Shown here in pieces: positions 948-41,218 of a stretch of 64,000 bases of DNA. Location: assembly GCA_011839185.1 (NCBI GenBank), contig GCA_011839185.1_3918.1; one strand, written 5' to 3'. This DNA is from a phage. The notes under the pieces were generated by a model. The model was not told the DNA's origin. It saw only the letters and a program-made list of their open reading frames with translations, and ran no database searches. Both the position numbers and the translations under genes were made by a program. The first letter of the stretch is position 1; the number at the start of each line of letters is the position of its first letter.

Positions 948-3182
948 ATGATTAAGACAATTAAAAAATCAAACGGTACAGTAGTAAGCTTTGACCCAGA
1001 AAGACTGAATAAATGGGCATCATGGGCAGATAAGCGTGGAATTATCTGGTCAGAAGTCACTATGGAAGCTATGAAACGTGTCTATGAAGGTTGCACCACA
1101 AAAGAGATGCACCAAGCCATGATTGATGTTTGTGTTGATAAACAAACTCAAGAGTACTCAGATATGGCTGGACGGCTACTTCTGGGTATTATCTACAAAG
1201 AAGCCTTTGGAGGCTTTACTAAGGTTCCTACGCTGGTTACCTTCGTTAAAAATATGGAGAGAGCAGGACTTTGGGAGAAGATGGATTATTCACAGGAAGA
1301 ACTTGAATACCTGCAAGGCTACATCGTACACTCAAAAGATATCTCTTACGGCTATGCAGTGTTGAAACAGTTCAGAGATAAATATGGTATCCGTGATATT
1401 AAAACGGGAAGACTTTTTGAGTCACCACAATTTATGTTTATGGGTATGGCTATGAAAGCCTTTGAGAAGCAACCAAAGCACCGTAGACTGCAAGATGTTA
1501 TTAAGCTGTACACTTACCTATCTGACCTGAAGATTAATGCTCCTACACCTTATCTGAATGGTTTACGTGCTACTAAATCAGGTTATGCGTCATGCTGTTT
1601 GATTAAGGCGAATGATACTGCTGAATCTCTCGGTATTGCTGCAAAGGTTGCTTATGACATGACTACAAAGCAAGCTGGCATTGGGATGCTGATGGAGACT
1701 CGTACTATTGGTGATGGTATCCGTCAAAATACTATTGAGCACATGGGTAAACTACCTTATTACAAGCTTGTACGCTCATCTGTAGAGGCAAACAAACAGA
1801 AGAGTCGTGGTGGTTCAGCTAATAACTTCTACACTGCTCTAGACCCGCAGATTGAAGATTTACTGCGTTTGAAGCACCCTACAACGGTTCCTTCTAAACG
1901 TATTAATGAGATGGACTACTCATTCGGCACAAACGATTATTTCTGGCAGTGTGTTCAGTATGATACAGATTGGTTGCTATTCTCTTACAAAGATGCACCA
2001 AAACTCTATGACATGTTCTACACAGCATCTGCTGATGAGTTTGCTATGGCAGTTGGTCATGCAGTACATTCAGGTGTTAAGCATAGACGAGTCAAGGCTC
2101 GTGAAATTGCTAAGCTGTTTATTCAACAGCGTTATGCTACAGGTCGTGTGTATCCATTCTTCACTAACAATGCAAACACACATACACCATTTAAAGAACC
2201 ATTGAAGATGTCAAATCTTTGTATGGAAATTGTATTGCCAGTGTATGGTTTTGAGAAAGAGACAGACCTTTACAGAGACGATGCTGTGAAAGAGGATGGT
2301 GAGGTGGCTCTTTGCTTCCTAGCTAGTTTGGTTGCAGGGAGAATTTCAGAAGATGAATACGCTGACGTTGCTTATTATGCTCTTGCAATGGTTGACTCCG
2401 TTATTGACCTTATGGATTATCCGTATCCGTCGATGCGTAACCATGTTCAGAAGCGTCGTTCTGTTGGGATTGGCCTTACAAATGTGGCTCATTACCTTGC
2501 GAAGAACTACGTGAACTATTCTTCAAGAGCGGGTAAGACGAAGCTTCATGAGCTTGCTGAAATGCACTCTTACTACTTACACGAAGCTTCTTTGAGACTT
2601 TCTAAAGAACGTGGTGTACCTGAATACATGAAGTTCACTAAGTACCCTGAAGGATGGGTTCCTCCGAAGACAGCTAACAGGAAGATTGATGAGAAGCATG
2701 ATGCAAAACTTCGTTATGATTGGGATGACTTAGCACAACGTATTAAAGAAAATGGTGGAATCCGTAACTCTGTATTAGAAGCTTACATGCCTAATGAGAG
2801 TTCTTCACTGGCAACTAATACGACAAATGGCTTGTATCCAATTCGTGACTTTATTTTAACTAAAAAGTCTGCAACTGGTAACGTACTGTTTATTGTTCCA
2901 GATTATGAAGAGTTGAAGTATGTCTATGAAATTGCTTGGGATATTGACACCTTTGACCTAATTGATTGTTATGCAATTGTTCAAAAGTTCACTGGTCAAG
3001 CTATCTCTTCAGATTTCTATGTTGACTACGCAAAAGCGAAGAAGGTATCATTGGCTCAAGCTTTGAAGTATATGATTTATGCCAACTCAGTAGGTATGAA
3101 AACCATGTACTACCTTAACAGCCGCATTGGTGTAGGTAAATCTGCACTGCAAGATGCTTATTGCGAGGGTTGTGGTGTTTAG
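948..3182 (+). CDS. nrdA: ribonucleotide reductase class Ia large subunit
   Basis: 744 aa; N-terminal ATP-cone-like segment; NLCMEI active-site motif; C-terminal CEGCG cysteine pair; followed by a beta-subunit gene. Confidence 0.9.
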   Translation: MIKTIKKSNGTVVSFDPERLNKWASWADKRGIIWSEVTMEAMKRVYEGCTTKEMHQAMIDVCVDKQTQEYSDMAGRLLLGIIYKEAFGGFTKVPTLVTFVKNMERAGLWEKMDYSQEELEYLQGYIVHSKDISYGYAVLKQFRDKYGIRDIKTGRLFESPQFMFMGMAMKAFEKQPKHRRLQDVIKLYTYLSDLKINAPTPYLNGLRATKSGYASCCLIKANDTAESLGIAAKVAYDMTTKQAGIGMLMETRTIGDGIRQNTIEHMGKLPYYKLVRSSVEANKQKSRGGSANNFYTALDPQIEDLLRLKHPTTVPSKRINEMDYSFGTNDYFWQCVQYDTDWLLFSYKDAPKLYDMFYTASADEFAMAVGHAVHSGVKHRRVKAREIAKLFIQQRYATGRVYPFFTNNANTHTPFKEPLKMSNLCMEIVLPVYGFEKETDLYRDDAVKEDGEVALCFLASLVAGRISEDEYADVAYYALAMVDSVIDLMDYPYPSMRNHVQKRRSVGIGLTNVAHYLAKNYVNYSSRAGKTKLHELAEMHSYYLHEASLRLSKERGVPEYMKFTKYPEGWVPPKTANRKIDEKHDAKLRYDWDDLAQRIKENGGIRNSVLEAYMPNESSSLATNTTNGLYPIRDFILTKKSATGNVLFIVPDYEELKYVYEIAWDIDTFDLIDCYAIVQKFTGQAISSDFYVDYAKAKKVSLAQALKYMIYANSVGMKTMYYLNSRIGVGKSALQDAYCEGCGV

Positions 3183-3237: not shown

Positions 3238-3495
3238 ATGAAAGATTTAATAGAAAAACATGAGCGACCAATATACTTGCTCTACAAACCCCGCAAAACA
3301 TTGTACTATGTGAGCAGCACAGGTATCATGATAAAGCAGAATGATGACTTATGGGTCACTGGAGCCTCTTACATCTCTACAGCAGATGGTAAAATCTACG
3401 CAAGACCTTATGAGATGTTTAATAAAGAAAATTGGGAAGTTTTAGATAGAAAACAAGCCTTAGAGATGATAAAGAAAGGAGAAATCACATTATGA
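3238..3495 (+). CDS. hypothetical protein (start trimmed from ORF-track 3154 to the ATG behind a GGAGAG RBS)
   Basis: ORF-track start overlaps nrdA and the hairpin; ATG at 3238 is preceded by GGAGAG. Confidence 0.4.
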   Translation: MKDLIEKHERPIYLLYKPRKTLYYVSSTGIMIKQNDDLWVTGASYISTADGKIYARPYEMFNKENWEVLDRKQALEMIKKGEITL

Positions 3496-4565
3496 TTAAC
3501 CAACACCCAATCTTTTTAGGTGGTGAGAGAAAGACATTTGACTCACTTAACAAGCACTACCCAAAAATCTTTGAGCTATATAAACAACAAAAAGCGCAAG
3601 ACTGGTCAGAAGATGAGTTCCCTTTTGAACAATCACGTCTTGATTTTGAGAGTGTGCCAGCATCAATGTCAGGTGTAATGCTTGAGATTCTTAAGTGGCA
3701 GTGGGAAGCAGATACCCAAGTTGCTAAGAGTTTAGCGTTTGCTTTTGCACCATTCATCTCTGATGACATTTATGCAACTGCAATTATGAAGCAGTCTGAG
3801 ATTGAAAACTTACATGCTCTGACTTACTCAGAGATTGTAAGGCAATGTATTAAAAACCCTGAAACAATCTTAGATGAGATTAACCAGAACATTGCTGTAC
3901 AAGACCGATTAAAAACTGTGAATCGTGTTCTTGAAGAATTGCTGGATGAAGGTATAAACTATCGACTGAGTTATGTCCGTGACTCACTTCTGGACAAAGA
4001 CCCTTTACACTTCCATAAAGTGATTCTGAAAGGTCTATTTGCAGTGACTGCACTGGAAGGTATATCTTTTATGGCATCCTTTGCATGTACTTTTGCACTT
4101 GATGCTCAAGATAAATTTCAGGGTATTGCTCAAGCTGTTCAGAAAATTATGCTTGATGAAATCCTTCACACTAAAATTGATATTGAAGTTTTAAAAGAAA
4201 CTTTAAGAGACGATGAGTGGCAAAAAGCTTTCCAACAAATTCTTCCAGAGATTAAAGTAATCTTAGATGAAGTAGTTGAAAGCGAAGAAAAATGGTCGTA
4301 TTATATCTTCTCCGAAGGACGTGCTGTAGTTGGTTTAAATACAAAGCTTCTCCATGAGTGGGTTTACTATAATGCTGCCCCACTGTATGATATGTTTGGC
4401 ATTCCCAGAGATTTTGTAGCTCCTAAAGAACCACCTCTGAAGTATATGATTAAGAAGATGGAAATTGATAAAGAGCAGAATGCTAATCAGGAGCAACAGA
4501 ACGGCGCGTATTTATTGAATACTGTTGTAGATGATTTGAATAGTGGATTTTTAGAGGTTCCTTAA
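3492..4565 (+). CDS. nrdB: ribonucleotide reductase class Ia small subunit
   Basis: 357 aa immediately downstream of nrdA; size and helical, acidic composition fit the di-iron R2 subunit. Confidence 0.8.
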   Translation: MINQHPIFLGGERKTFDSLNKHYPKIFELYKQQKAQDWSEDEFPFEQSRLDFESVPASMSGVMLEILKWQWEADTQVAKSLAFAFAPFISDDIYATAIMKQSEIENLHALTYSEIVRQCIKNPETILDEINQNIAVQDRLKTVNRVLEELLDEGINYRLSYVRDSLLDKDPLHFHKVILKGLFAVTALEGISFMASFACTFALDAQDKFQGIAQAVQKIMLDEILHTKIDIEVLKETLRDDEWQKAFQQILPEIKVILDEVVESEEKWSYYIFSEGRAVVGLNTKLLHEWVYYNAAPLYDMFGIPRDFVAPKEPPLKYMIKKMEIDKEQNANQEQQNGAYLLNTVVDDLNSGFLEVP

Positions 4566-5054: not shown

Positions 5055-7199
5055 ATGAACAAAGTACAGATTATTAAAAAGAATGGCTCACTTGAAGAAC
5101 CTGATATCAAAAAAGTTTTAGCAGCAGTAACTAAGTCAGCTAACAGGGTTGGGTATAAAGAACTTCCACCAGATGTTACCCAAGCTCTTGAGTCAGCATT
5201 CATGAGGATTCTGGTGAAGTCCACTAAGCAGAATAATTTGCTCATCTCGGTAAATGACATTCACAGTATTGTTGAGGGTGCTTTGGCAGAAGTCAATCAC
5301 GAGATTTACGAGTCTTACTCAACATATAGAAATTACCGTAAAGAGGTTGCTCAAAATTGGGATGAGCTTTACCAAAAGACTAGAGACACACTCTTCTTAG
5401 GTGACCGTGAAAATGCCAACTTTGACAGCAGTTTAATTTCTACAAAAGGTTCAATTATTCGTGGTTATCTGACTAAAGAAATCTTTAAACAATACCATTT
5501 AACACCAGAGGAACTTGAAGCCATTGAAAAAGGGTTTATCTACATCCATGACTTAAGAGACTTAATTTTTGGTGGTATTAACTGCTGCTTGTTTGACATT
5601 GGTAAAGTACTGAAAGGTGGCTTTGAAATGTCTGGCATCGAATATTGTGAACCGAAGTCTGTGCTGTCGGCCTTACAAGTTATTGGTGACGTAGTTCTTT
5701 CAGCAACTGCACAGCAATTTGGTGGCTTTACTTTAGCAGAGATTGACAAGGTACTTGTACCGTATGCTAAGAAGTCTCTACGCTATCATGCTGAGAAAGC
5801 AACATCTTATGGTATTCCTAAAGAACATTACCATAATTATGTCATGGAGCAGTTACAGATTGAATTAACTCAAGGTTTCCAATCACTTGAAATGAAGCTA
5901 AACACTGTACCTTGCAGCCGTGGTGATTTCGCATTCACAACTTTAACATTTGGTTTACTTGACTCAGATATGTCTAATGAAGACAACCGATTACAATACA
6001 TGATTGCAAGTACTCTCCTAGATGTTCGTATGAATGGACAAGGGAAGAGCAAGAAGCCTGTTGTATTTCCTAAACTGGTTTATATTTATGACCAGAAGAG
6101 GCATGATGAAAATATCTGTCAAGGTCAACTGTACAGTAAAGCCATTGAGTGTTGCTCTAAAGCAATGTATCCAGATTTCTTAAGTGTATCTGGTCATGGT
6201 GCTGTAGCAGAGGCTTTTGAGCGTTCTGGCAAGGTAATTTCACCGATGGGTTGCAGAGCCTTCTTATCTCCATATCTTAATGAGGATGGAGAAGAGTTCT
6301 ATGTTGGTCGTGCTAATATTGGTGCTGTATCTTTGAACTTACCAATGATTTATCAGTACGCCAAAGAGAATGGTTTAGATTTCTGGAAAGAGCTTGATAA
6401 GTACCTAGAGATGATTCGCAGCTTCCACAAGAAACGCTACGAAATGATTGCTAATATGCCAGCAAGTTCTAACCCTCTTGCATTCACACAAGGTGGTCTG
6501 TACAAAGGAACTAAGAAACCTACTGACAAGGTTGGTTGGGATATTGTGAAGTCCTTCACAGCTTCTTTTGGGGTTACTGCGCTTGATGAGTTATCTGTTC
6601 TTGCTGAGGGTAAACGACTTCATGAAGTTGGAAGCTATAGTTTTGCATACGATGTTCTGGCATACATCAACATGAAAACTGAAGAGTTTAAAAACGAAGA
6701 TGGCTTCTTATATGCCGTCTATGGTACTCCAGCAGAATCACTTTGTGGAACTCAACTAAAACAGTTCAGAGATATGCTTGGCGTTATTAAAGGTGTTTCT
6801 GACAAGGAATACTTCACAAACAGTTTTCATATGAATGTTGCAGCAGACATCTCACCATTTGAGAAGCAGGACTTAGAAGAGCCATTCTTCCATATCTGTA
6901 GAGGTGGCAGAATCCAGTATGTAAGGGTGGCTAACCCAGAAAACTTATCAGCACTTAAAAGCTGTATTACAAGAGGCATGTTGAAAGGTTTTTATCAGGG
7001 ACTTAACTTTGACTTAGCAATCTGTGAGCATTGTGGTAACAGGCCAAAGGCTGATGTTGAAGAATGTGAAGTTTGTCACTCACATGATATCTCTGTGATT
7101 AACAGGGTGTGTGGGTATCTTGGATGGACTAAGATTAAAGGTGAATCCCGAATGAACGATGCAAAAATCGCTGAGATTCGTGATAGAGTCTCTATGTAA
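5055..7199 (+). CDS. nrdD: anaerobic ribonucleotide reductase class III
   Basis: 714 aa; N-terminal ATP-cone-like segment; C-terminal glycyl-radical motif RVCGYLG; CxxC...CxxC zinc ribbon before it. Confidence 0.9.
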   Translation: MNKVQIIKKNGSLEEPDIKKVLAAVTKSANRVGYKELPPDVTQALESAFMRILVKSTKQNNLLISVNDIHSIVEGALAEVNHEIYESYSTYRNYRKEVAQNWDELYQKTRDTLFLGDRENANFDSSLISTKGSIIRGYLTKEIFKQYHLTPEELEAIEKGFIYIHDLRDLIFGGINCCLFDIGKVLKGGFEMSGIEYCEPKSVLSALQVIGDVVLSATAQQFGGFTLAEIDKVLVPYAKKSLRYHAEKATSYGIPKEHYHNYVMEQLQIELTQGFQSLEMKLNTVPCSRGDFAFTTLTFGLLDSDMSNEDNRLQYMIASTLLDVRMNGQGKSKKPVVFPKLVYIYDQKRHDENICQGQLYSKAIECCSKAMYPDFLSVSGHGAVAEAFERSGKVISPMGCRAFLSPYLNEDGEEFYVGRANIGAVSLNLPMIYQYAKENGLDFWKELDKYLEMIRSFHKKRYEMIANMPASSNPLAFTQGGLYKGTKKPTDKVGWDIVKSFTASFGVTALDELSVLAEGKRLHEVGSYSFAYDVLAYINMKTEEFKNEDGFLYAVYGTPAESLCGTQLKQFRDMLGVIKGVSDKEYFTNSFHMNVAADISPFEKQDLEEPFFHICRGGRIQYVRVANPENLSALKSCITRGMLKGFYQGLNFDLAICEHCGNRPKADVEECEVCHSHDISVINRVCGYLGWTKIKGESRMNDAKIAEIRDRVSM

Positions 7200-7209
7200 A
7201 ACTTGACAA

Positions 7210-7247
7210 GGTGATGTGGGTCTTGATAGGCTTACATCACCTTTTTT
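7210..7247 (+). terminator. rho-independent terminator
   Basis: GGTGATGT...ACATCACC hairpin followed by TTTTTT right after the nrdD stop. Confidence 0.6.
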
Positions 7248-7353: not shown

Positions 7354-7554
7354 ATGTTTAAGATATCAAAAGCGTTGATATACATACTCCACATTCTAAT
7401 CTTCTTCTTTGGTGTTAGCGTTATGGTATGGGGTTTTTCAGACCCACAATGGAGTTTCTCATATCATGGTCAGATGGATTTATGGCCATGCTTCAAACCA
7501 TTTTTAGGATTAGCTATAGCATTCAGTACATTACCAACTAAGGTGAAATTATGA
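7354..7554 (+). CDS. small membrane protein
   Basis: 66 aa with a hydrophobic N-terminal segment. Confidence 0.3.
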   Translation: MFKISKALIYILHILIFFFGVSVMVWGFSDPQWSFSYHGQMDLWPCFKPFLGLAIAFSTLPTKVKL

Positions 7555-7946
7555 TTAAGTTAAGCCAAAAACAGTTAGAGTGGATTAAAGATTATGCCTC
7601 AGAGTGTGGCTCTTGTGAAAAGAATCACGTAAGATACTCAACATTCCACACGGTCTTCACATTGTATATTGGCGACAATGTTCTAAGTGATTCTGTAGAA
7701 GATGGTGTAGCATTGCCTAATGAATTGCTTGACAAATTAGCTGTAGTCACTGGAACTTGGTCTGAAGAAGACGGTCATGAACTATCTAACGATGTTGTCT
7801 TCTACAGTCTTGAAAACATCATGAATCCAGAGTACATTATGCTAATGACTTGCGCACAAGATTGTGTACCATTACAAAACTTCATTAAAGAGCACTGTGA
7901 AGAATTTATTACTAAACAGGTTCCTTGTCAGGTGGTGTTTGAATGA
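7551..7946 (+). CDS. hypothetical protein
   Basis: 131 aa; cysteine-containing; overlaps the upstream stop. Confidence 0.45.
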   Translation: MIKLSQKQLEWIKDYASECGSCEKNHVRYSTFHTVFTLYIGDNVLSDSVEDGVALPNELLDKLAVVTGTWSEEDGHELSNDVVFYSLENIMNPEYIMLMTCAQDCVPLQNFIKEHCEEFITKQVPCQVVFE

Positions 7947-8005
7947 GTAAAACAATTCGAAGAAAAGGTTTAAAGAACGTTTATATTTATTGGTGAGGTA
8001 ACTAG

Positions 8006-8491
8006 ATGAATTACATGGAGATTAGACCATTTGACACAGCTAATGGTGAAGGGGTTCGTGTAAGCCTCTTCGTAGCTGGTTGTAAGCATCACTGCGAAGG
8101 CTGCTTTAACAGGGAGTCTTGGAAGTTTAATGCTGGTAAAGAGTTTACTTATGCAAACCTCTACGGTATCATTAAGTTAATGGATGATGAGGCCATCAGT
8201 GGGTTGTCAATACTCGGTGGAGAGCCTCTGGATGATAGAAATATTCAAGAGGTTACCAACATATGCAAGCGTATTAAAACTGTTTATCCAGAAAAGTCTA
8301 TATGGCTTTGGACAGGTTTTCAACTGCACGAAAAAATTCACCTAGATGTGATGAAATATGTTGACGTGGTGATTGATGGTAAGTATGATTCATCTAAACC
8401 AACAGTTAAACCATATCGTGGTTCTGATAACCAAAACCTCTGGAGAAAAGAGTATGGGTGGCAAGGCGATTGTCAGTGGAGAGCCGAGTAA
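8006..8491 (+). CDS. nrdG: anaerobic ribonucleotide reductase activating protein (radical SAM)
   Basis: 161 aa; CKHHCEGC cysteine cluster near the N-terminus; close to nrdD. Confidence 0.85.
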   Translation: MNYMEIRPFDTANGEGVRVSLFVAGCKHHCEGCFNRESWKFNAGKEFTYANLYGIIKLMDDEAISGLSILGGEPLDDRNIQEVTNICKRIKTVYPEKSIWLWTGFQLHEKIHLDVMKYVDVVIDGKYDSSKPTVKPYRGSDNQNLWRKEYGWQGDCQWRAE

Positions 8492-36978: not shown

Positions 36979-37350
36979 ATGAAAAACAGAACAAACAAAG
37001 GCCAGTTTAAAAAAGGCCAGTCTGGAAACCCATCTGGAAGACCAAAAGGCTCTCGTAACAAAAGCTCACTTGTAAAAGCTCAACTGACCATTGATAATTC
37101 TGCTGAGTTTGCTGCAAAGTTGTTTGAAGCAATTGTTACAAGGGATGCTGCTAAGCTTGCAGAGTTCGGGTTAAACACAGACGACGTAACCATCAAGAGC
37201 ATGATTGAGGTCGGTAAAACTATCATGACTCACTCAGCAGGTGAGATGAAAGCCATTGCAGCAGACACTAAGAAGACTCCTGATAATGGTGGTCAGTCTC
37301 AGACAGATAACAAACCAACGTTCTCTGCTGTAGCGACTCTTAAAAAATAA
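36979..37350 (+). CDS. hypothetical protein with basic N-terminal KGQSGNPSGRPKG motif
   Basis: ORF track 123 aa. Confidence 0.5.
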   Translation: MKNRTNKGQFKKGQSGNPSGRPKGSRNKSSLVKAQLTIDNSAEFAAKLFEAIVTRDAAKLAEFGLNTDDVTIKSMIEVGKTIMTHSAGEMKAIAADTKKTPDNGGQSQTDNKPTFSAVATLKK

Positions 37351-37431: not shown

Positions 37432-38847
37432 ATGAGCGAATTATTTAAACATGCGCACCTTCATGCAGGTCGAACTGAAAATGGTGCTGTAAACCATACT
37501 TCATCAATGTCTGCTCTTGTAGACTTTTACAAAGCTGCTGGTTCAAGCCGTAGTAACGTAGAAATCTTACCAGACCTGTTCTACAAAGCTTTGCGTGAGG
37601 ATGTTGATGTTGCAGTTCGTATTTTGCTTCATATGCGAGATGTACGAGAAGGTATGGGTGAGCGTAAAGCCTTCAGAACTGTTTTGCTTCAAGCAATTGA
37701 AGATAAAGTTTTAGAGTCTACGCAGGTTCTTCGCATTATGGATAAGATTGCAGAACTTGGTCGTTTTGATGACTTCAAAATCTTCGTAGGTACTCGTTTC
37801 GAGACAGATGCCTTCAAACATTTAGAAGAAGCATTACTAGACCCTGCAACAGCAGGTTTGGCGGCTAAGTGGTTACCACGAGTCAAACCACGTCATAAGC
37901 AGTTTGTAAAACGTTTCTGCAAGTTTGCCAACTTGAGTGAGAAAGAGTACCGCACACTGTTGTCTGCACTATCTGATACAGTTGAGCAAAAAATCTCTGC
38001 TAATGAGTTTGGTAAGATTGACTACAGTAAGATTCCTTCACTTGCTGCTGCACGTTACCAAAAACTGTTTAACCGTAAAGATGGAGAGCGTTACAAAGCT
38101 TACATCGAGTCCTTATCAAAAGGTGAGGCTAAGATTAATGCTGGTGCTGTTTACCCATACGATGTGATTAAATCTGTCAAGCATGGTAATGCAGATGTTG
38201 CTAATGAGCAGTGGAAAGCACTACCAAACTGGATGGCAGAAGGTGAAAACATCTTGTGTATGTCTGATGTATCAAGTTCAATGTCTTGGGTGAATTTTGG
38301 CTCCATTACTGCTCTGGATATTGGTGTATCACTTGCCTTGTATGTAGCAGAACGCAATACAGGTTGCTTTAAGAATGAGTTGATGGTTTATTCAACAAAC
38401 CCTCACTTCATCGAACTGAGTGGTGATTTACGAAACCGTCATCGTCAGGTGATGCGACACGTTGAATATGGCTCAACTAACTTACAAGCAGCTTTTGACC
38501 GCATTCTTGAGACAGGCAAAAGAAACAACTTGACTCAGAAAGATATGCCAAGTAAGCTTATCATCTTCTCCGATATGGAGTTTAATCAGGTTGATGGGGC
38601 TAACGGTCGTACAAACTTTGAAGCAATTCAGAGTAAGTACAAAAAAGCTGGATATGAGATGCCACAACTGGTATTCTGGTACTTAGCAAACCGTAATGGT
38701 ACTTGCGAAGTATCTGTTAAGGATAACGGTGTAGCAATGGTATCAGGGTTCTCTCCAGCCACTTTAAAAGCTCTGCTTGGTGGTGAGAAGTTTGACCCAA
38801 TCAGTGTAATGCTCAAAGCAGTAATGATTGACCGTTATATCTGGTAA
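37432..38847 (+). CDS. vWA-domain protein with helical N-terminal domain (possible Ro60/Rsr-like or DUF2828-like)
   Basis: 471 aa; MIDAS-type DVSSSM at about residue 279 with downstream T and D residues; ~270-aa helical N-terminal region; directly upstream of the tRNA array. Confidence 0.6.
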   Translation: MSELFKHAHLHAGRTENGAVNHTSSMSALVDFYKAAGSSRSNVEILPDLFYKALREDVDVAVRILLHMRDVREGMGERKAFRTVLLQAIEDKVLESTQVLRIMDKIAELGRFDDFKIFVGTRFETDAFKHLEEALLDPATAGLAAKWLPRVKPRHKQFVKRFCKFANLSEKEYRTLLSALSDTVEQKISANEFGKIDYSKIPSLAAARYQKLFNRKDGERYKAYIESLSKGEAKINAGAVYPYDVIKSVKHGNADVANEQWKALPNWMAEGENILCMSDVSSSMSWVNFGSITALDIGVSLALYVAERNTGCFKNELMVYSTNPHFIELSGDLRNRHRQVMRHVEYGSTNLQAAFDRILETGKRNNLTQKDMPSKLIIFSDMEFNQVDGANGRTNFEAIQSKYKKAGYEMPQLVFWYLANRNGTCEVSVKDNGVAMVSGFSPATLKALLGGEKFDPISVMLKAVMIDRYIW

Positions 38848-38865: not shown

Positions 38866-38894
38866 TTGACAATGTGTTTAATACCCTTTAATAT
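38866..38894 (+). promoter_or_regulatory. sigma70-like promoter
   Basis: TTGACA, 17-nt spacer, TAATAT. Confidence 0.5.
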
Positions 38895-38955: not shown

Positions 38956-38985
38956 TTGACAACCACTAAAAAATAATGTTAAAGT
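38956..38985 (+). promoter_or_regulatory. sigma70-like promoter ahead of the tRNA array
   Basis: TTGACA, 18-nt spacer, TAAAGT. Confidence 0.5.
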
Positions 38986-39011
38986 GGTTACATAGAGTTT
39001 GAAAAGTTTAT

Positions 39012-39088
39012 CTCTGTTTAGCTCAGCTTGGTAGAGCGTTCCGTTTGGGGCGGTAAGGCCGGAGGTTCAAGTCCTCCAACAGAGACCA
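39012..39088 (+). tRNA. tRNA-Pro (anticodon TGG)
   Basis: manual cloverleaf: acceptor CTCTGTT/AACAGAG, D-arm GCTCAGCTTGGTAGAGC, T-arm GGAGGTTCAAGTCCTCC, encoded CCA. Confidence 0.8.
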
Positions 39089-39095
39089 AATTAAT

Positions 39096-39173
39096 GTTCC
39101 AGTGGACAAAATGGTAAAGTCACCACTCTTTCAAAGTGGATATTTGAGGGTTCAAATCCCTTCTGGAACGCCA
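39096..39173 (+). tRNA. tRNA-Glu (anticodon TTC)
   Basis: acceptor GTTCCAG/CTGGAAC, anticodon arm CCACT-CTTTCAA-AGTGG, T-loop TTCAAAT, encoded CCA. Confidence 0.75.
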
Positions 39174-39180
39174 GTTTTGA

Positions 39181-39253
39181 CAGAAGACCAATTACAGCAA
39201 ACTTAATCTTATTCATCTGAAGGTAAATCGGACAAAGAAGAGATTTGGTCTGG
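39181..39253 (+). ncRNA. candidate structured element A (hairpin with conserved bulged closing stem)
   Basis: 5' CAGAAGACCAAT ... ATTTGGTCTGG 3'; AT-rich ~48-nt interior; one of four related elements. Confidence 0.35.
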
Positions 39254-39264
39254 TCATTAAGAAT

Positions 39265-39341
39265 TGCGGGTATAGAGAAAGGGCGTCTCACATGTCTCAT
39301 TAGCATGGTATCGGCAGGTTCGACTCCTGCACCCGCCTCCA
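39265..39341 (+). tRNA. tRNA with CAT anticodon (Met or Ile2)
   Basis: acceptor TGCGGGT/ACCCGCC with 1-72 mismatch, anticodon arm CATGT-CTCATTA-GCATG, T-arm GCAGGTTCGACTCCTGC, encoded CCA. Confidence 0.65.
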
Positions 39342-39347
39342 AATTTA

Positions 39348-39411
39348 CAGAAGACCGTTTACAGCAATATTTATTAAATTTTTAGCGGAAAAATTGAAAG
39401 ATACGGTCTGG
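39348..39411 (+). ncRNA. candidate structured element B
   Basis: 5' CAGAAGACCGTTTACAGCAA ... ACGGTCTGG 3'. Confidence 0.35.
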
Positions 39412-39424
39412 TAATACTAAACAT

Positions 39425-39501
39425 GGTTAGGAAGCACATAAGGTATGTGCGGTCGCCTGTTAAGCGAATGGCACAGGGTTCGAATCCCTGACTAACCGCC
39501 A
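39425..39501 (+). tRNA. tRNA-Asn (anticodon GTT)
   Basis: acceptor GGTTAGG/ACTAACC, D-arm GCACATAAGGTATGTGC, loop CTGTTAA, T-arm CAGGGTTCGAATCCCTG, encoded CCA. Confidence 0.75.
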
Positions 39502-39570
39502 AATTTAGGAGAGAAGCGATTGCTCACCGATTTGTAAGGTGCAAGTCCTTAGCCTGAATAGAAATCAAAT

Positions 39571-39658
39571 GTGTCGTTATCCCGTAGATGGTAGCGGTGG
39601 GGACTGTAAATCCCTTGTCATTGAGACTCGGTAGGTTCGACTCCTACACGGCACACCA
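39571..39658 (+). tRNA. tRNA-Tyr (anticodon GTA), long variable arm
   Basis: 88 nt; acceptor GTGTCGT/ACGGCAC, loop CTGTAAA, T-arm GTAGGTTCGACTCCTAC, encoded CCA. Confidence 0.75.
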
Positions 39659-39663
39659 ATAAA

Positions 39664-39741
39664 GGTTATGTAGTTTAATTTGGTTAAAATACTCCCCTGT
39701 CACGGGAGATGATGAGGGTTCAAATCCCTTCGTAACCGCCA
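39664..39741 (+). tRNA. tRNA-Asp (anticodon GTC)
   Basis: acceptor GGTTATG/CGTAACC, arm CTCCC-CTGTCAC-GGGAG, T-arm GAGGGTTCAAATCCCTT, encoded CCA. Confidence 0.8.
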
Positions 39742-39769
39742 ATTTTGAGAGGGCTATTTAGCCCCTCCC

Positions 39770-39797
39770 TTAAAGGGTTCTTACGAGTATCCTTTAA
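39770..39797 (+). promoter_or_regulatory. conserved hairpin with GTTCTTACGAG loop (copy 1 of 4)
   Basis: TTAAAGG-GTTCTTACGAGTAT-CCTTTAA. Confidence 0.4.
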
Positions 39798-39802
39798 AGG
39801 AG

Positions 39803-39876
39803 CAGAAGACCAAATACAGCAAGTTACTTAAAATTTCAAGCCAATTTAATTTTGAAAAATTTAAAACTTGGTCTGG
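39803..39876 (+). ncRNA. candidate structured element C
   Basis: 5' CAGAAGACCAAATACAGCAA ... CTTGGTCTGG 3'. Confidence 0.35.
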
Positions 39877-39889
39877 CTCAACAAATTTA

Positions 39890-40020
39890 CAGAAGACCGT
39901 TTACAGCAAAACTTAAACAATCTATTTCTCGGTAAAGAAAAGGCGAAGGTTCGATTCCTTCACTCGGCAGATGTCGAGTTGGTGTAATGGTAGCACTTAA
40001 GATGATAAACAACGGTCTGG
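39890..40020 (+). ncRNA. candidate structured ncRNA D: closing stem as A-C, enclosing a permuted tRNA-like module
   Basis: CAGAAGACCGTT ... AACGGTCTGG; inside in order: T-arm GAAGGTTCGATTCCTTC, 7-bp acceptor-like hairpin ACTCGGC-AGAT-GTCGAGT, D-arm GTGTAATGGTAGCAC. Confidence 0.45.
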
Positions 40021-40021
40021 T

Positions 40022-40165
40022 AATTATCTTTGTAGATAAGTTATTAAGCTTACCTGTGAGTATGCGACCACAAAGGGTGAAAGGGTAAATTCTAGATTTA
40101 AACCTAAAAAGGCACATCGCTACAGACCTTAAGCAAGTCTGGGTAGCTTATCTACAAAGATAATT
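40022..40165 (+). repeat. long inverted repeat (19-bp perfect arms) enclosing about 106 nt
   Basis: AATTATCTTTGTAGATAAG (40022-40040) and its exact reverse complement (40147-40165). Confidence 0.6.
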
Positions 40166-40169
40166 TAAT

Positions 40170-40245
40170 GGAAGTGTAGCAGAATGGTGATGCGGCAGAC
40201 TTTTAATCTGACAGGCGATGGGTTCGAATCCCTCCACTTCTACCA
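40170..40245 (+). tRNA. tRNA-Lys (anticodon TTT)
   Basis: acceptor GGAAGTG/CACTTCT, loop CTTTTAA, T-loop TTCGAAT, encoded CCA; T-stem imperfect in my parse. Confidence 0.65.
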
Positions 40246-40323
40246 AATTCACCCTTAACTGAGAAACACCTGCGCGGCTGGAAACACCCACTCAACAGTT
40301 TCTCTAACTAGGGTACTTATTCT

Positions 40324-40400
40324 GGTTCAGTCGCAGATAAGGTAATGCAAGGGTCTCATAAGCCCTATGAATGTGGGTTCGATTCCCATCTGAACCTCCA
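40324..40400 (+). tRNA. tRNA with CAT anticodon (Met, fMet or Ile2)
   Basis: acceptor GGTTCAG/CTGAACC, anticodon stem with three G-C pairs (AGGGT/GCCCT), loop CTCATAA, T-arm GTGGGTTCGATTCCCAT, encoded CCA. Confidence 0.7.
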
Positions 40401-40416
40401 ATTCGTTGGTGATATT

Positions 40417-40902
40417 ATGTTTTGTGCTAATAAAGATTGTGACAACAAAGCCGTTAAAGGTGGAAAGTATTGTTCACGCTCTTGTGCTGCAAGGGTAAAC
40501 AACAAGAGTCATCCAAAAAGAAGACAAGAAGGCTCTTGTCATTCATGTGGAAAGCAGACACCAAAATCAAGAAAGTATTGTGATGAATGTATTTCAAATG
40601 GTATTCTGAAACAATACAAAAACCCCGATGAAGAAAAGAAAGCGAAGTCACAACACGTTAAAAAGTCTCGTGACAAACTTAAGAGGGTTTTAGTTGATTA
40701 CAAAGGTGGTTGTTGCTCAATTTGTGGATACAATAAGTGCATAAAGGCTTTAGAGTTTCACCACTTAGACCCTAATACAAAGGACTTCACAGTAGGACAA
40801 AAACACTTCTCTATAGAGGTAATGAAGTCTGAAGTTGATAAGTGTGTATTACTGTGTGCAAATTGCCACAGAGAGGTACACGAAGGGGTAACAAAGCTGT
40901 GA
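40417..40902 (+). CDS. HNH homing-endonuclease-like protein with N-terminal zinc ribbons (start trimmed past the tRNA)
   Basis: C-terminal EFHHLDP...LLCANCHREVH HNH motif; several CxxC pairs; ORF-track start 40345 lies inside the tRNA. Confidence 0.65.
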   Translation: MFCANKDCDNKAVKGGKYCSRSCAARVNNKSHPKRRQEGSCHSCGKQTPKSRKYCDECISNGILKQYKNPDEEKKAKSQHVKKSRDKLKRVLVDYKGGCCSICGYNKCIKALEFHHLDPNTKDFTVGQKHFSIEVMKSEVDKCVLLCANCHREVHEGVTKL

Positions 40903-41015: not shown

Positions 41016-41182
41016 AACCTTAGTTTTCGTTGCGTAGCGTCTATTTTGCAAATTTAAAATAAATGCAAACGACAATGTTTTTCTGGCAGTAGCTTGATAG
41101 GCTAAACACCAGTGAGGTCTTCCAATCCCTCATCAAAGAATTTGGCGTACTCGCCCACGGTATGATTAATAAGGTGGGCATC

Positions 41183-41210
41183 TTTAAGGGCTTTCTAAGA
41201 GAGTCTTTAA
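41183..41210 (+). promoter_or_regulatory. conserved hairpin-motif variant (copy 2 of 4)
   Basis: GGCTTTCTAAGAGAGTCTTTAAAG, about 10 nt upstream of tRNA-Arg. Confidence 0.3.
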
Positions 41211-41218
41211 AGATTAAT

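Follow-up and report, generated by a model that had tools for sequence, protein, structure and literature searches.

Four candidate Y-like RNAs downstream of a Ro60-like protein gene in the tRNA cluster of a FelixO1-like phage

Near the start of a transfer RNA (tRNA) gene cluster in the 64,000-nucleotide (nt) stretch of phage DNA analysed here (contig GCA_011839185.1_3918.1 of assembly GCA_011839185.1, hereafter the window), three short repeats designated A, B and C are followed by a longer relative, element D. What are these repeats? An initial annotation of the sequence had offered three answers: minimal versions of the element-D RNA, processing signals, or protein-binding sites. Y RNAs in the broad sense are non-coding RNAs that are bound, and usually stabilised, by a protein of the Ro60 family. 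We infer that A, B and C, together with D, are expressed as small non-coding Y-like RNAs and bound by a Ro60-like protein of the phage, and we consider this interpretation probable.

The sequence AGAAGACCNNNTACAGCAA, with 16 specified bases, matches the + strand of the window exactly four times, at 39182, 39349, 39804 and 39891; with up to 3 mismatches allowed, 0.78 matches would be expected by chance. All four lie within 850 nt, in 39182-39909, and GGTCTGG closes every copy. The boundaries first assigned to the repeats proved exact: the first base of CAGAAGACC is at 39181, 39348 and 39803 and the last of GGTCTGG at 39253, 39411 and 39876; a fourth copy of CAGAAGACC, belonging to element D, starts at 39890. 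The interiors of A, B and C are 68%, 83% and 82% AT, compared with 61% for the whole window, and they scarcely align with one another (about 1-2 standard deviations above shuffles), in agreement with their earlier description as AT-rich and mutually unlike. The interior length of 45-55 nt given with that description does not apply to B (35-37 nt). The region is 94-99% identical to FelixO1-like phages (Felixounavirus). It holds 26 tRNA genes, all on the + strand, between 39012 and 44791, and elements A-D sit in the first kilobase of this cluster. Each of A, B and C had been said to lie just after a tRNA or another element. This is the case for A and B, which follow tRNA-Glu and tRNA-Met, respectively, at gaps of about 4 nt, but C comes after a 60-nt hairpin-rich spacer 3' of tRNA-Asp. 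D begins 7 nt past C. Most tRNA junctions of the cluster are without such an element.

The observation that the repeats are not simple terminal inverted repeats was correct, their 5' and 3' arms being asymmetric, and the pairing of the arms extends beyond what had been described. The two "variable" bases 3' of AGACC are complementary to the two that precede GGUCU, which gives a 7-base-pair (bp) inner helix, and a 4-bp outer helix lies past an internal loop of 3x1 nucleotides. From the outside inward, each element consists of the outer helix, the 3x1 loop (5' AGA, 3' G), the inner helix, a single-stranded UUACAGCAA immediately 3' of the 5' strand, and the variable interior. The 5' strand of the inner helix opens with A-G-R, and the 3' strand closes with Y-C-U, then G. 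The outer helix varies by copy (UGAC/GUCA in A, UUAC/GUAA in B and D, GAGC/GCUC in C), and the inner helix comes in two versions, AGACCAA/UUGGUCU in A and C and AGACCGU/ACGGUCU in B and D. Minimum free energy (MFE) folds of A-D give back the outer helix, the 3x1 loop and the inner helix.

We then counted pairs in a 51-column alignment of the 5' and 3' modules of 23 elements from seven loci (six phage genomes, namely the window, L002, L003, L004, L009 and L010, and the more distant L011), in which the interiors were swapped for a fixed spacer and MAFFT added no gaps. Among the 253 cells of the 11 pairs, 98% were paired, a percentage that is somewhat inflated by the selection of the 3' modules of non-Felix elements for best complementarity. 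Ten of the 11 pairs had changed on both sides, in 66 cells; none of 500 shuffles reached the observed pairing or compensation, and sliding the register by 1-3 columns left only 23-42% paired. The breadth of this variation is illustrated by the inner helices, which read AGACCGU/ACGGUCU in B and D of the window, GGACUGU/ACAGUCC in one element of Yersinia phage P778 and GGAUUC/GAAUCC in another, AGUGUCU/GGACACU in L010 and AGAAGCU/AGCUUCU in L011. The outer helix of element B likewise shows a compensatory change in phage SUSP2, to UUGC/GCAA. Six cells held G-U pairs, as in AGGCCAA/UUGGUCU and AGACUGU/ACGGUCU of phage Moogle. On the opposite strand each of these would become an A-C mismatch, and cells of that kind were not seen; the transcribed strand is therefore the + strand, the same as that of the tRNAs. 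Between orthologues the module is 89-100% identical and the interiors 49-90%. These data revealed selection on the helices as RNA structures.

The gene directly upstream of the cluster, which the initial annotation had not noticed, suggests a partner for these RNAs. The open reading frame (ORF) at 37432-38847 ends 330 nt before A, so that A-D lie 330-1180 nt downstream of it, on the same + strand. Pfam assigned DUF2828 and DUF7788, not TROVE, to its product, and a sequence search of the ORF against Protein Data Bank (PDB) chains returned nothing relevant; the likeness to Ro60 emerged only by structure comparison. An AlphaFold2 model based on 38 homologues (predicted local distance difference test 87, predicted template modelling score 0.87) was compared with the PDB by Foldseek. 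The top 12 matches were all Ro60/TROVE structures, full length, with E values of 4e-8 to 2e-6 and template modelling (TM) scores of 0.35-0.66 (0.52-0.66 in 11 of the 12, and 0.35 for Deinococcus radiodurans Rsr, 2nvo). They included Ro60 of Thermus phage phiLo, Xenopus and human as well as Deinococcus Rsr, and vWA domains ranked next. Judged by this model, the ORF encodes a Ro60-like protein with a TROVE domain and a vWA domain. Homologues were found by tblastn in 710 phage records, those of mycobacteriophages being annotated "Ro-like RNA binding protein". Among close relatives, gp130 of phage Bas63 is 97.5% identical to the window's protein; a preprint reported gp130 as Ro60-resembling and as countering the ppl defence system, and its authors only speculated that Y RNAs lie among the downstream tRNA genes (PMC11482910).

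Comparison with the tRNA regions of related phages, which the initial annotation had suggested, showed that A-D are all kept at the same positions in FelixO1, Bas63, SUSP2 and Moogle; in FelixO1 and Bas63 they are nearly identical to those of the window. The Ro60-like protein is 89% identical to that of the window in SUSP2, 85% in Moogle, 63% in L009, 56% in L010 and 53% in P778. A, B and C are syntenic in SUSP2, Moogle and the metagenomic phage L009, which has lost D, and five elements occur in L010, three in P778 and four, in tandem right after the gene, in L011, with differing helix sequences. This history bears on the idea that A-C are decaying duplicates, or pseudogenes, of D that lost the tRNA-like core and are under no selection. 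B and D have identical helices and a similar V-type hairpin, while A and C share the other helix variant, and this sharing points to an origin by duplication. Decay, however, does not account for the synteny of A-C in three relatives, for a module that is better conserved than the interiors and whose helices are preserved by compensatory changes, or for the retention of A-C without D in L009. In most other phages, moreover, the short form is the sole form (see the T-loop count below). We therefore regard decay as very unlikely.

Two extra-looking motif copies in P778 were the 3' tails (..GUCCAGCAACAA) of neighbouring elements and were excluded. The elements of this phage (L004) end in ..GUCCAGCAACAA at 7195-7213, 7390-7408 and 7865-7883, which puts CAGCAA in the 3' tail; the recognition sequence may occur here a second time, or the closing helix may resemble it by chance.

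The module was also found on the strand of the Ro60-like gene in distant phages, often with no tRNA nearby, as a covarying helix with UACAGCAA after it. Three elements stand in tandem immediately 3' of the Ro-like gene of mycobacteriophage Wilder, in the order short, YrlA-like, short. Cronobacter phage S13 has a YrlA-like RNA closed by AGGAUGC-CUACAGCAA...GCAUCCU, and phages of Staphylococcus, Campylobacter, Bacillus and Enterococcus, as well as Listeria phage A511, carry one to three elements directly beside the Ro-like gene. We quantified this association in a metagenomic sample of 80 viral loci encoding relatives of the protein, of which the 61 with standard layout were used for motif counts. 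Within 650 nt downstream of the gene, the motif [ACU][AU][ACU]CAGCAA occurred 36 times on the gene strand and twice on the opposite strand (binomial p = 5e-9), and its density there was 0.93 per kb compared with a background of 0.16 per kb, about 6-fold higher. At least one copy was present in the flanks of 38 of the 61 loci. A pairing strand (at least 6 bp, with its partner 15-150 nt downstream) directly preceded 43 of the 52 gene-strand motifs in the flanks, as against 15 of 70 in a control set (Fisher p = 1e-11). The helices themselves were diverse (GGUUCC, AGGCUCU, AGAAUGU, AGGAUAG, AGGAAGG) within the common frame 5' (A)AGR-NNNN-UUACAGCAA ... NNNN-YCU-G. A covariance model built from Felix-like elements only matched A, B and C at E values of 7e-11 to 3e-9 and nothing else in the window; in 80 other loci it gave 26 matches at E up to 1, all 26 on the gene strand. 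Our statistics rest on motif density, strand bias, helix co-occurrence and pair counting; a first structural descriptor was too loose (about 3.7 chance matches per 128 kb after tightening), and its counts were not used.

These counts also bear on two explanations that would do without a Ro60-like partner. If the hairpins were mere spacers or processing signals of a polycistronic tRNA transcript, serving for RNase III or RNase E entry or for folding insulation, they would have no life after cleavage. Their position 4-10 nt from tRNA ends inside a 26-tRNA cluster fits such a role, and their 11-bp double-helical closing stems could be nuclease substrates. Yet 23 of the 38 module-positive metagenomic loci have no tRNA within about 8 kb, and the module also stands beside Ro60-like genes without tRNAs in Wilder and in Staphylococcus phage S-CoN_Ph16. 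A T-loop follows the motif at only 4 of the 38 loci, so the short form is the common one and is not an accessory of tRNA processing. Most tRNA junctions of the window lack an element, and a generic nuclease site does not explain a conserved single-stranded UUACAGCAA that is invariant from actinophages to Felix. The processing signals of the initial annotation are thus disfavoured, and we consider this explanation improbable. A second possibility is that the repeats act as DNA, whether as protein-binding sites, as targets of recombination or of a homing endonuclease, or as a miniature mobile element: they are imperfectly palindromic, and they lie near an HNH-like ORF in a region with indels among relatives. 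Against this, FelixO1, Bas63, SUSP2 and Moogle all carry the four copies at matching positions, and neither target-site duplications nor presence/absence polymorphism is seen; G-U is tolerated on the + strand only; the strand bias to the gene is 36:2 for the motif and 26:0 for the covariance model; and the two arms are asymmetric. Action as DNA is extremely unlikely in our estimate. Indirect support for protein-binding sites, located in the RNA, comes from a module that travels with the Ro60-like gene across very distant phages.

Element D, whose likeness to a tRNA had also gone unnoticed in the initial annotation, ties the short repeats to a known architecture. YrlA RNAs are built of a 5' strand, a conserved YUAY starting the V region, the T arm, the acceptor stem, the D arm and the 3' strand (PMC4201824; 10.1101/312249). 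The MFE fold of D gives V, T, acceptor and D arms, and the order of YrlA (T arm, closed acceptor-like stem-loop and D arm after the YUAY/V region) was found in D only; A, B and C have a single weak hairpin in place of the YrlA tRNA-like domain. The acceptor-like stem of D covaries, being ACUCGGC/GUCGAGU in the window, ACACG/CGUGU in SUSP2 and ACCCUUC/GAAGGGU in Moogle. ARAGORN called no tRNA on D in its native order, but when D was circularly permuted, with the acceptor loop opened and the termini joined, it was called as a tRNA with a 50-nt "intron" corresponding to the Y module. Two features of tRNA tertiary structure, a UA linker between the acceptor and D stems and the Levitt pair 15:48, were also sought in D. 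The linker reads UG in the window but UA in Moogle; with A at position 15, and with a V region whose final nucleotide is C in the window and A in FelixO1, the canonical Levitt pair is not evident by sequence. Structurally, D qualifies as a YrlA-type Y RNA. Since B and D share both the outer and the inner helix, and the interior hairpin of B resembles the V stem-loop of D, A-C look like forms of D without its T, acceptor and D arms, which supports the initial suggestion that they are minimal versions of the element-D RNA.

A fifth RNA, element E, follows directly after D. In a consensus fold from four phages, 12 of its 31 predicted pairs are compensatory. Its inner hairpin CAGAC-CUUAAGCAA-GUCUG (40123-40141) has a covarying stem and a constant 9-nt loop that resembles UUACAGCAA, and the L010 homologue of E is closed by a Y-type module (UUGCAAA[GAAUCU]UUCAGCAU...). 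E is possibly another partner of the Ro60-like protein.

Location near a Ro60 orthologue on the same strand has served as a criterion for Y RNAs (PMC4201824), and A-D lie in this way. They also have paired ends with an internal loop and a variable other end, and the presumed partner is, by fold comparison of its AlphaFold2 model, a Ro60 with a TROVE HEAT-repeat ring and vWA/MIDAS. Several observations nevertheless weigh against identifying A-D as ligands of that protein, whose binding we infer from genomic linkage and architecture only. The published Ro60-binding motifs, GGUCCGA of metazoa and Deinococcus and GNCGAAN0-1G or CGAA of YrlA, YrlB and phiLo Yrl, are not present in A-D; the 5' strand of the elements, (U/G)(A/G)C-AGA-AGACC, is at best 1-2 mismatches from GNCGAAG. 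The 3x1 loop changes to ACA, AUA, AAA or UGU in relatives, and the sequence that stays invariant is UACAGCAA, on the 3' side of the helix. The protein is only 11-17% identical to solved Ro60s, and the RNA-binding mode of a DUF2828-type protein may differ from that of Ro60. The motif was not found in the flanks examined of 23 of the 61 metagenomic loci, and the inflation of the pairing percentage noted above counts on the same side. Thermodynamic z-scores for the MFE folds of A-D are modest (-1.0 to -2.1) and alike on the complementary strand, so stability alone does not discriminate. An Rfam scan of the region (E up to 10, 1 kb) returned only tRNAs and chance-level matches, among them a Dictyostelium class I RNA match on A-D at 20 bits against a gathering score of 41.5 (E 0.7-0.9), and the tRNA model recovered only a T-arm fragment of D. 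Since Rfam gives no match over the YrlA-like RNA of Wilder either, this negative result for A-D is uninformative.

The missing motif is also a point in favour of a different reading of the same RNAs, as stable but independent of Ro60. In that case they would be decoys or sponges of host tRNA-directed nucleases or defence proteins, or would pair with host RNA through UACAGCAA, and the linkage to the gene would reflect a shared pathway. Element D does mimic a tRNA, and the phage tRNA cluster is thought to counter tRNA-targeting defences (cited in PMC11482910). What this reading leaves unexplained is the adjacency (a few hundred nt) and strict co-orientation with the gene in phages of at least four bacterial phyla, hosts with few other proteins in common. 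The combination of terminal stem, internal loop and effector end is, in addition, that of Y RNAs (PMC4201824, PMC12135203). We consider a Ro60-independent role unlikely, and return to Y-like RNAs bound by the Ro60-like protein as the preferred interpretation. By analogy with Ro60, which binds the bulged terminal stem of Y RNA, the closing module would be the binding site.

A mechanism of the following kind can be envisaged. The two sigma-70-like promoters upstream of the array would drive one long transcript containing tRNAs and Y-like RNAs; these promoter calls are pattern matches only, and the total of promoter-like sites is not above that of shuffles. As the elements are only 4-10 nt from tRNA ends, they would be released by the host enzymes that process the flanking tRNAs, with RNase P cutting at the 5' end of the next tRNA and endo- and exonucleases acting at 3' ends. 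The released RNAs would be about 70-80 nt long (137 nt for D), their ends shielded by their own terminal helix, and the Ro60-like protein would bind the module of helix, loop and UACAGCAA. The variable interior may then be the effector end, a tRNA-shaped domain in D and a short AU-rich hairpin or single strand in A-C. With four such RNAs, one protein could acquire several partners or have its RNA-binding cavity gated, host PNPase or tRNA-binding enzymes being examples of what might be tethered; complexes of Ro60, Y RNA and PNPase in Deinococcus, Salmonella and phage phiLo are a precedent for an effector end (PMC4201824, PMC12135203). Since the 97.5%-identical Bas63 gp130 is reported to counter ppl, the ribonucleoprotein (RNP) is, by analogy, probably part of a counter-defence or RNA quality-control toolkit acting at the RNA level. 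More tentatively, and as something possible rather than probable, we propose that A-C, D and perhaps E belong to an undescribed phage-wide class, "mini Y RNAs", whose hallmark is a covarying terminal helix with a single-stranded UACAGCAA after it. This class would be the cognate ligand of DUF2828-type Ro60-like proteins in hundreds of phages, among them FelixO1, Listeria phage A511 and staphylococcal, campylobacter and mycobacterial phages; the RNP would be an anti-defence device, and the interiors, a tRNA mimic or AU-rich hairpins, would steer the protein to different host targets. The positions of the features discussed here are collected in the table.

Table. Positions of the Ro60-like gene, the putative Y-like RNAs and their parts in the window, and related features in other phages
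Feature	Sequence	Position	Strand	Remarks
Ro60-like protein gene	window	37432-38847	+	471 aa; Pfam DUF2828 and DUF7788; presumed protein partner
Sigma-70-like promoters (two), upstream of tRNA/Y-like RNA array	window	38866-38894, 38956-38985	+	consensus scan, 10/12 each
Element A, putative mini Y-like RNA	window	39178-39256	+	UUACAGCAA at 39192-39200; 44-nt interior, weak hairpin; covariance-model E 2.6e-10
Element B, putative mini Y-like RNA	window	39345-39414	+	UUACAGCAA at 39359-39367; 35-nt interior hairpin AUUUUU-AGCGG-AAAAAU; covariance-model E 7e-11
Element C, putative mini Y-like RNA	window	39800-39879	+	AUACAGCAA at 39814-39822; 45-nt AU-rich interior hairpin; covariance-model E 2.8e-9
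Element D, YrlA-type Y-like RNA	window	39887-40023	+	closing module as in B; UUACAGCAA at 39901-39909
D: V stem-loop	window	39925-39940	+	UUUCU-CGGUAA-AGAAA
D: T arm	window	39945-39961	+	GAAGG-UUCGAUU-CCUUC
D: closed acceptor-like stem-loop	window	39962-39979	+	7 bp, 4-nt loop; ACUCGGC-AGAU-GUCGAGU
D: D arm	window	39982-39996	+	GUGU-AAUGGUA-GCAC; UG linker before
Element E, possible fifth associated RNA	window	40022-40165	+	about 23-bp closing stem
Element 1 (short)	Wilder			GUGGACGC-UAACAGCAA...GCGUCCAG
Element 2 (YrlA-like)	Wilder			GUGGACUCC-UACAGCAA...T, acceptor, D arms...GGAGUCCAG
Element 3 (short)	Wilder			GUGGUCAC-UAACAGCAA...GUGACCAG
Overlying coding sequence, ORF94	FelixO1 (L001)	3387-3617	opposite	
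Overlying coding sequences on D and E, bas63_0137 and bas63_0138	Bas63 (MZ501086)	82748-83022	opposite (minus)	
Overlying coding sequence, CDS0134	Enterococcus phage VRE9_1 (L098)	2323-2439		

As the last rows indicate, small coding sequences annotated "hypothetical protein" or "unknown" overlie D, E or the equivalent Y-like element in some phages. These are probably spurious gene calls. Immediately upstream of the Ro60-like gene, a DUF5681 gene has the same + orientation (36979-37350), and one stands likewise in L009 (4575-4946) and L010 (4562-4921); this gene pair, conserved in relatives of 56-63% identity, may belong to the same module.

Other features of the tRNA cluster and its relatives are recorded here as separate observations. 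Hairpin-bearing, unannotated spacers without UACAGCAA occur at 39502-39570, 39742-39799 and 40246-40323 (+), and the spacer just before C contains GAGAGGGCUAUUUAGCCCCUCCC and then a CCUUUAAAGG palindrome. The HNH-like ORF mentioned above (40345-40902, +) lies between tRNA-Met and tRNA-Ile and encodes Cys-rich repeats and the C-terminal ...HHLDP...CANCHREVHEG; the likeness was noted by eye, and Pfam gave no match at E up to 0.01. The alignment of many relatives to 39000-40420 is broken in two, and this had raised the idea of a mobile element or indel among the repeats. The idea was dropped: FelixO1 is one of many relatives lacking about 75-85 nt of this interval, its alignment shows all four elements nearly identical, and the indel therefore lies beyond 40180. 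Weak matches to the transfer-messenger RNA model (E about 0.002, far under the gathering score) fell in spacers of the tRNA clusters at 41029-41218 (+) of the window and at 8009-8149 (+) of P778 (L004); in P778, acceptor, D and T arms give the stretch the ends of a tRNA, with a long insert between them. In Cronobacter phage S13 (L007), two annotated "tRNAs" of 121 and 113 nt (7896-8016 and 8026-8138) have normal acceptor, D and T arms and, at the anticodon/variable position, an insert of about 45 nt that includes CAAACUGAYAAGUUUG-UAUUCAGCA. By appearance, these long tRNAs are a non-permuted counterpart to the YrlA-like RNA located next, at about 8140-8302.

Much is known of Ro60-Y RNA particles in animals and a few bacteria, and very little of their role in phages. 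The sole functional clue, the action of Bas63 gp130 against ppl, came with no RNA partner named. Our analysis supplies coordinates and a consensus (a helix starting AGR, then UUACAGCAA, and a 3' end YCU-G) for four to five candidate partner RNAs in a group of E. coli and Salmonella phages, the FelixO1 type, that is genetically tractable. As the module also flanks Ro60-like genes in model phages whose hosts are Listeria, Staphylococcus, Campylobacter, Bacillus, Enterococcus and Mycobacterium, recognition by the protein, a possible difference in effectors between minimal and tRNA-like forms, and the way in which the RNP overcomes a defence system become testable.

Y-like RNAs beside phage Ro60 genes were already known from 22 phages (Chen et al. 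2014, PMC4201824) and from phiLo in 2025 (PMC12135203), so the kind itself is not new. In the literature on DUF2828, Ro-like phage proteins and Felixounavirus non-coding RNA we found these RNAs not described, and we found no description of the helix-UACAGCAA mini form, of its occurrence in FelixO1-type phages or of its spread over several phyla, the list of 22 phages of Chen et al. being outside the scope of this negative. The elements are of the Y RNA kind, but A-C fall outside YrlA and none belongs to any Rfam family. The preprint on Bas63 (PMC11482910) concerns the closest case, with the orthologous gene directly upstream of the same tRNA cluster and all four elements present; our candidates are unannotated spacers between the tRNAs, not annotated tRNAs. 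Metazoan Y RNAs (Rfam RF00019) share with the Felix elements a bulged terminal stem for Ro60 and a variable loop for effectors. They show no sequence or covariance-model similarity to them, however: the helix GGUCCGA/UUGACC is absent from the Felix elements, and metazoan Y RNAs, unlike these, are RNA polymerase III transcripts with La-binding U tails.

Thermus phage phiLo (PMC12135203; PDB 9KOP, 9L5Y) likewise has a phage Ro60 homologue, which is among the best structural matches of the window's protein, with two adjacent Y-like RNAs, Yrl1 and Yrl2, of stem-bulge-stem form. Binding and a ternary complex with host PNPase have been shown experimentally for phiLo Ro60 (PMC12135203). The phiLo RNAs were chosen by CGAA in a large bulge, lie upstream of the gene and were tested biochemically, whereas the Felix RNAs, known from sequence, have a 3x1 loop (AGA/G) with UUACAGCAA and lie downstream among tRNAs.

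The bacterial YrlA type (PMC4201824; 10.1101/312249) resembles the window's system in several respects. A Ro60-family gene is nearby on the same strand, the RNA ends pair with an internal loop, YUAY (UUAC here) follows the 5' strand, and D has V, T, acceptor and D arms in YrlA order, its 7-bp acceptor stem matching that of Mycobacterium smegmatis YrlA, an RNase P substrate. In both, several Y RNAs occur per genome, one of them tRNA-like. The differences are that A-C are without the tRNA-like domain, that C-AGA-AG-ACC replaces the Rsr motif GNCGAAN0-1G, and that YUAY is extended here to UUACAGCAA/UACAGCAA, as against UUACCACUUC in M. smegmatis YrlA (from the probe sequence, PMC4201824). The presumed partner, moreover, belongs to the DUF2828/DUF7788 branch, not to Pfam TROVE, and the RNAs lie inside a tRNA cluster.

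For A-C, the nearest parallels are YrlB of Salmonella Typhimurium and M. smegmatis and Yrn2 of D. radiodurans (PMC4201824), which are hairpins with a small loop, processed from a common precursor. Like A-C, these are shorter companions beside a tRNA-like Y RNA and have a Ro60-binding stem, putative in A-C, with no full tRNA domain. They have no sequence similarity to A-C and number one where there are three here, and YrlB orthologues were found only in Salmonella (PMC4201824), in contrast to a helix-UACAGCAA module found in phages of several bacterial phyla. By analogy, A-C would correspond functionally to these second Y RNAs.

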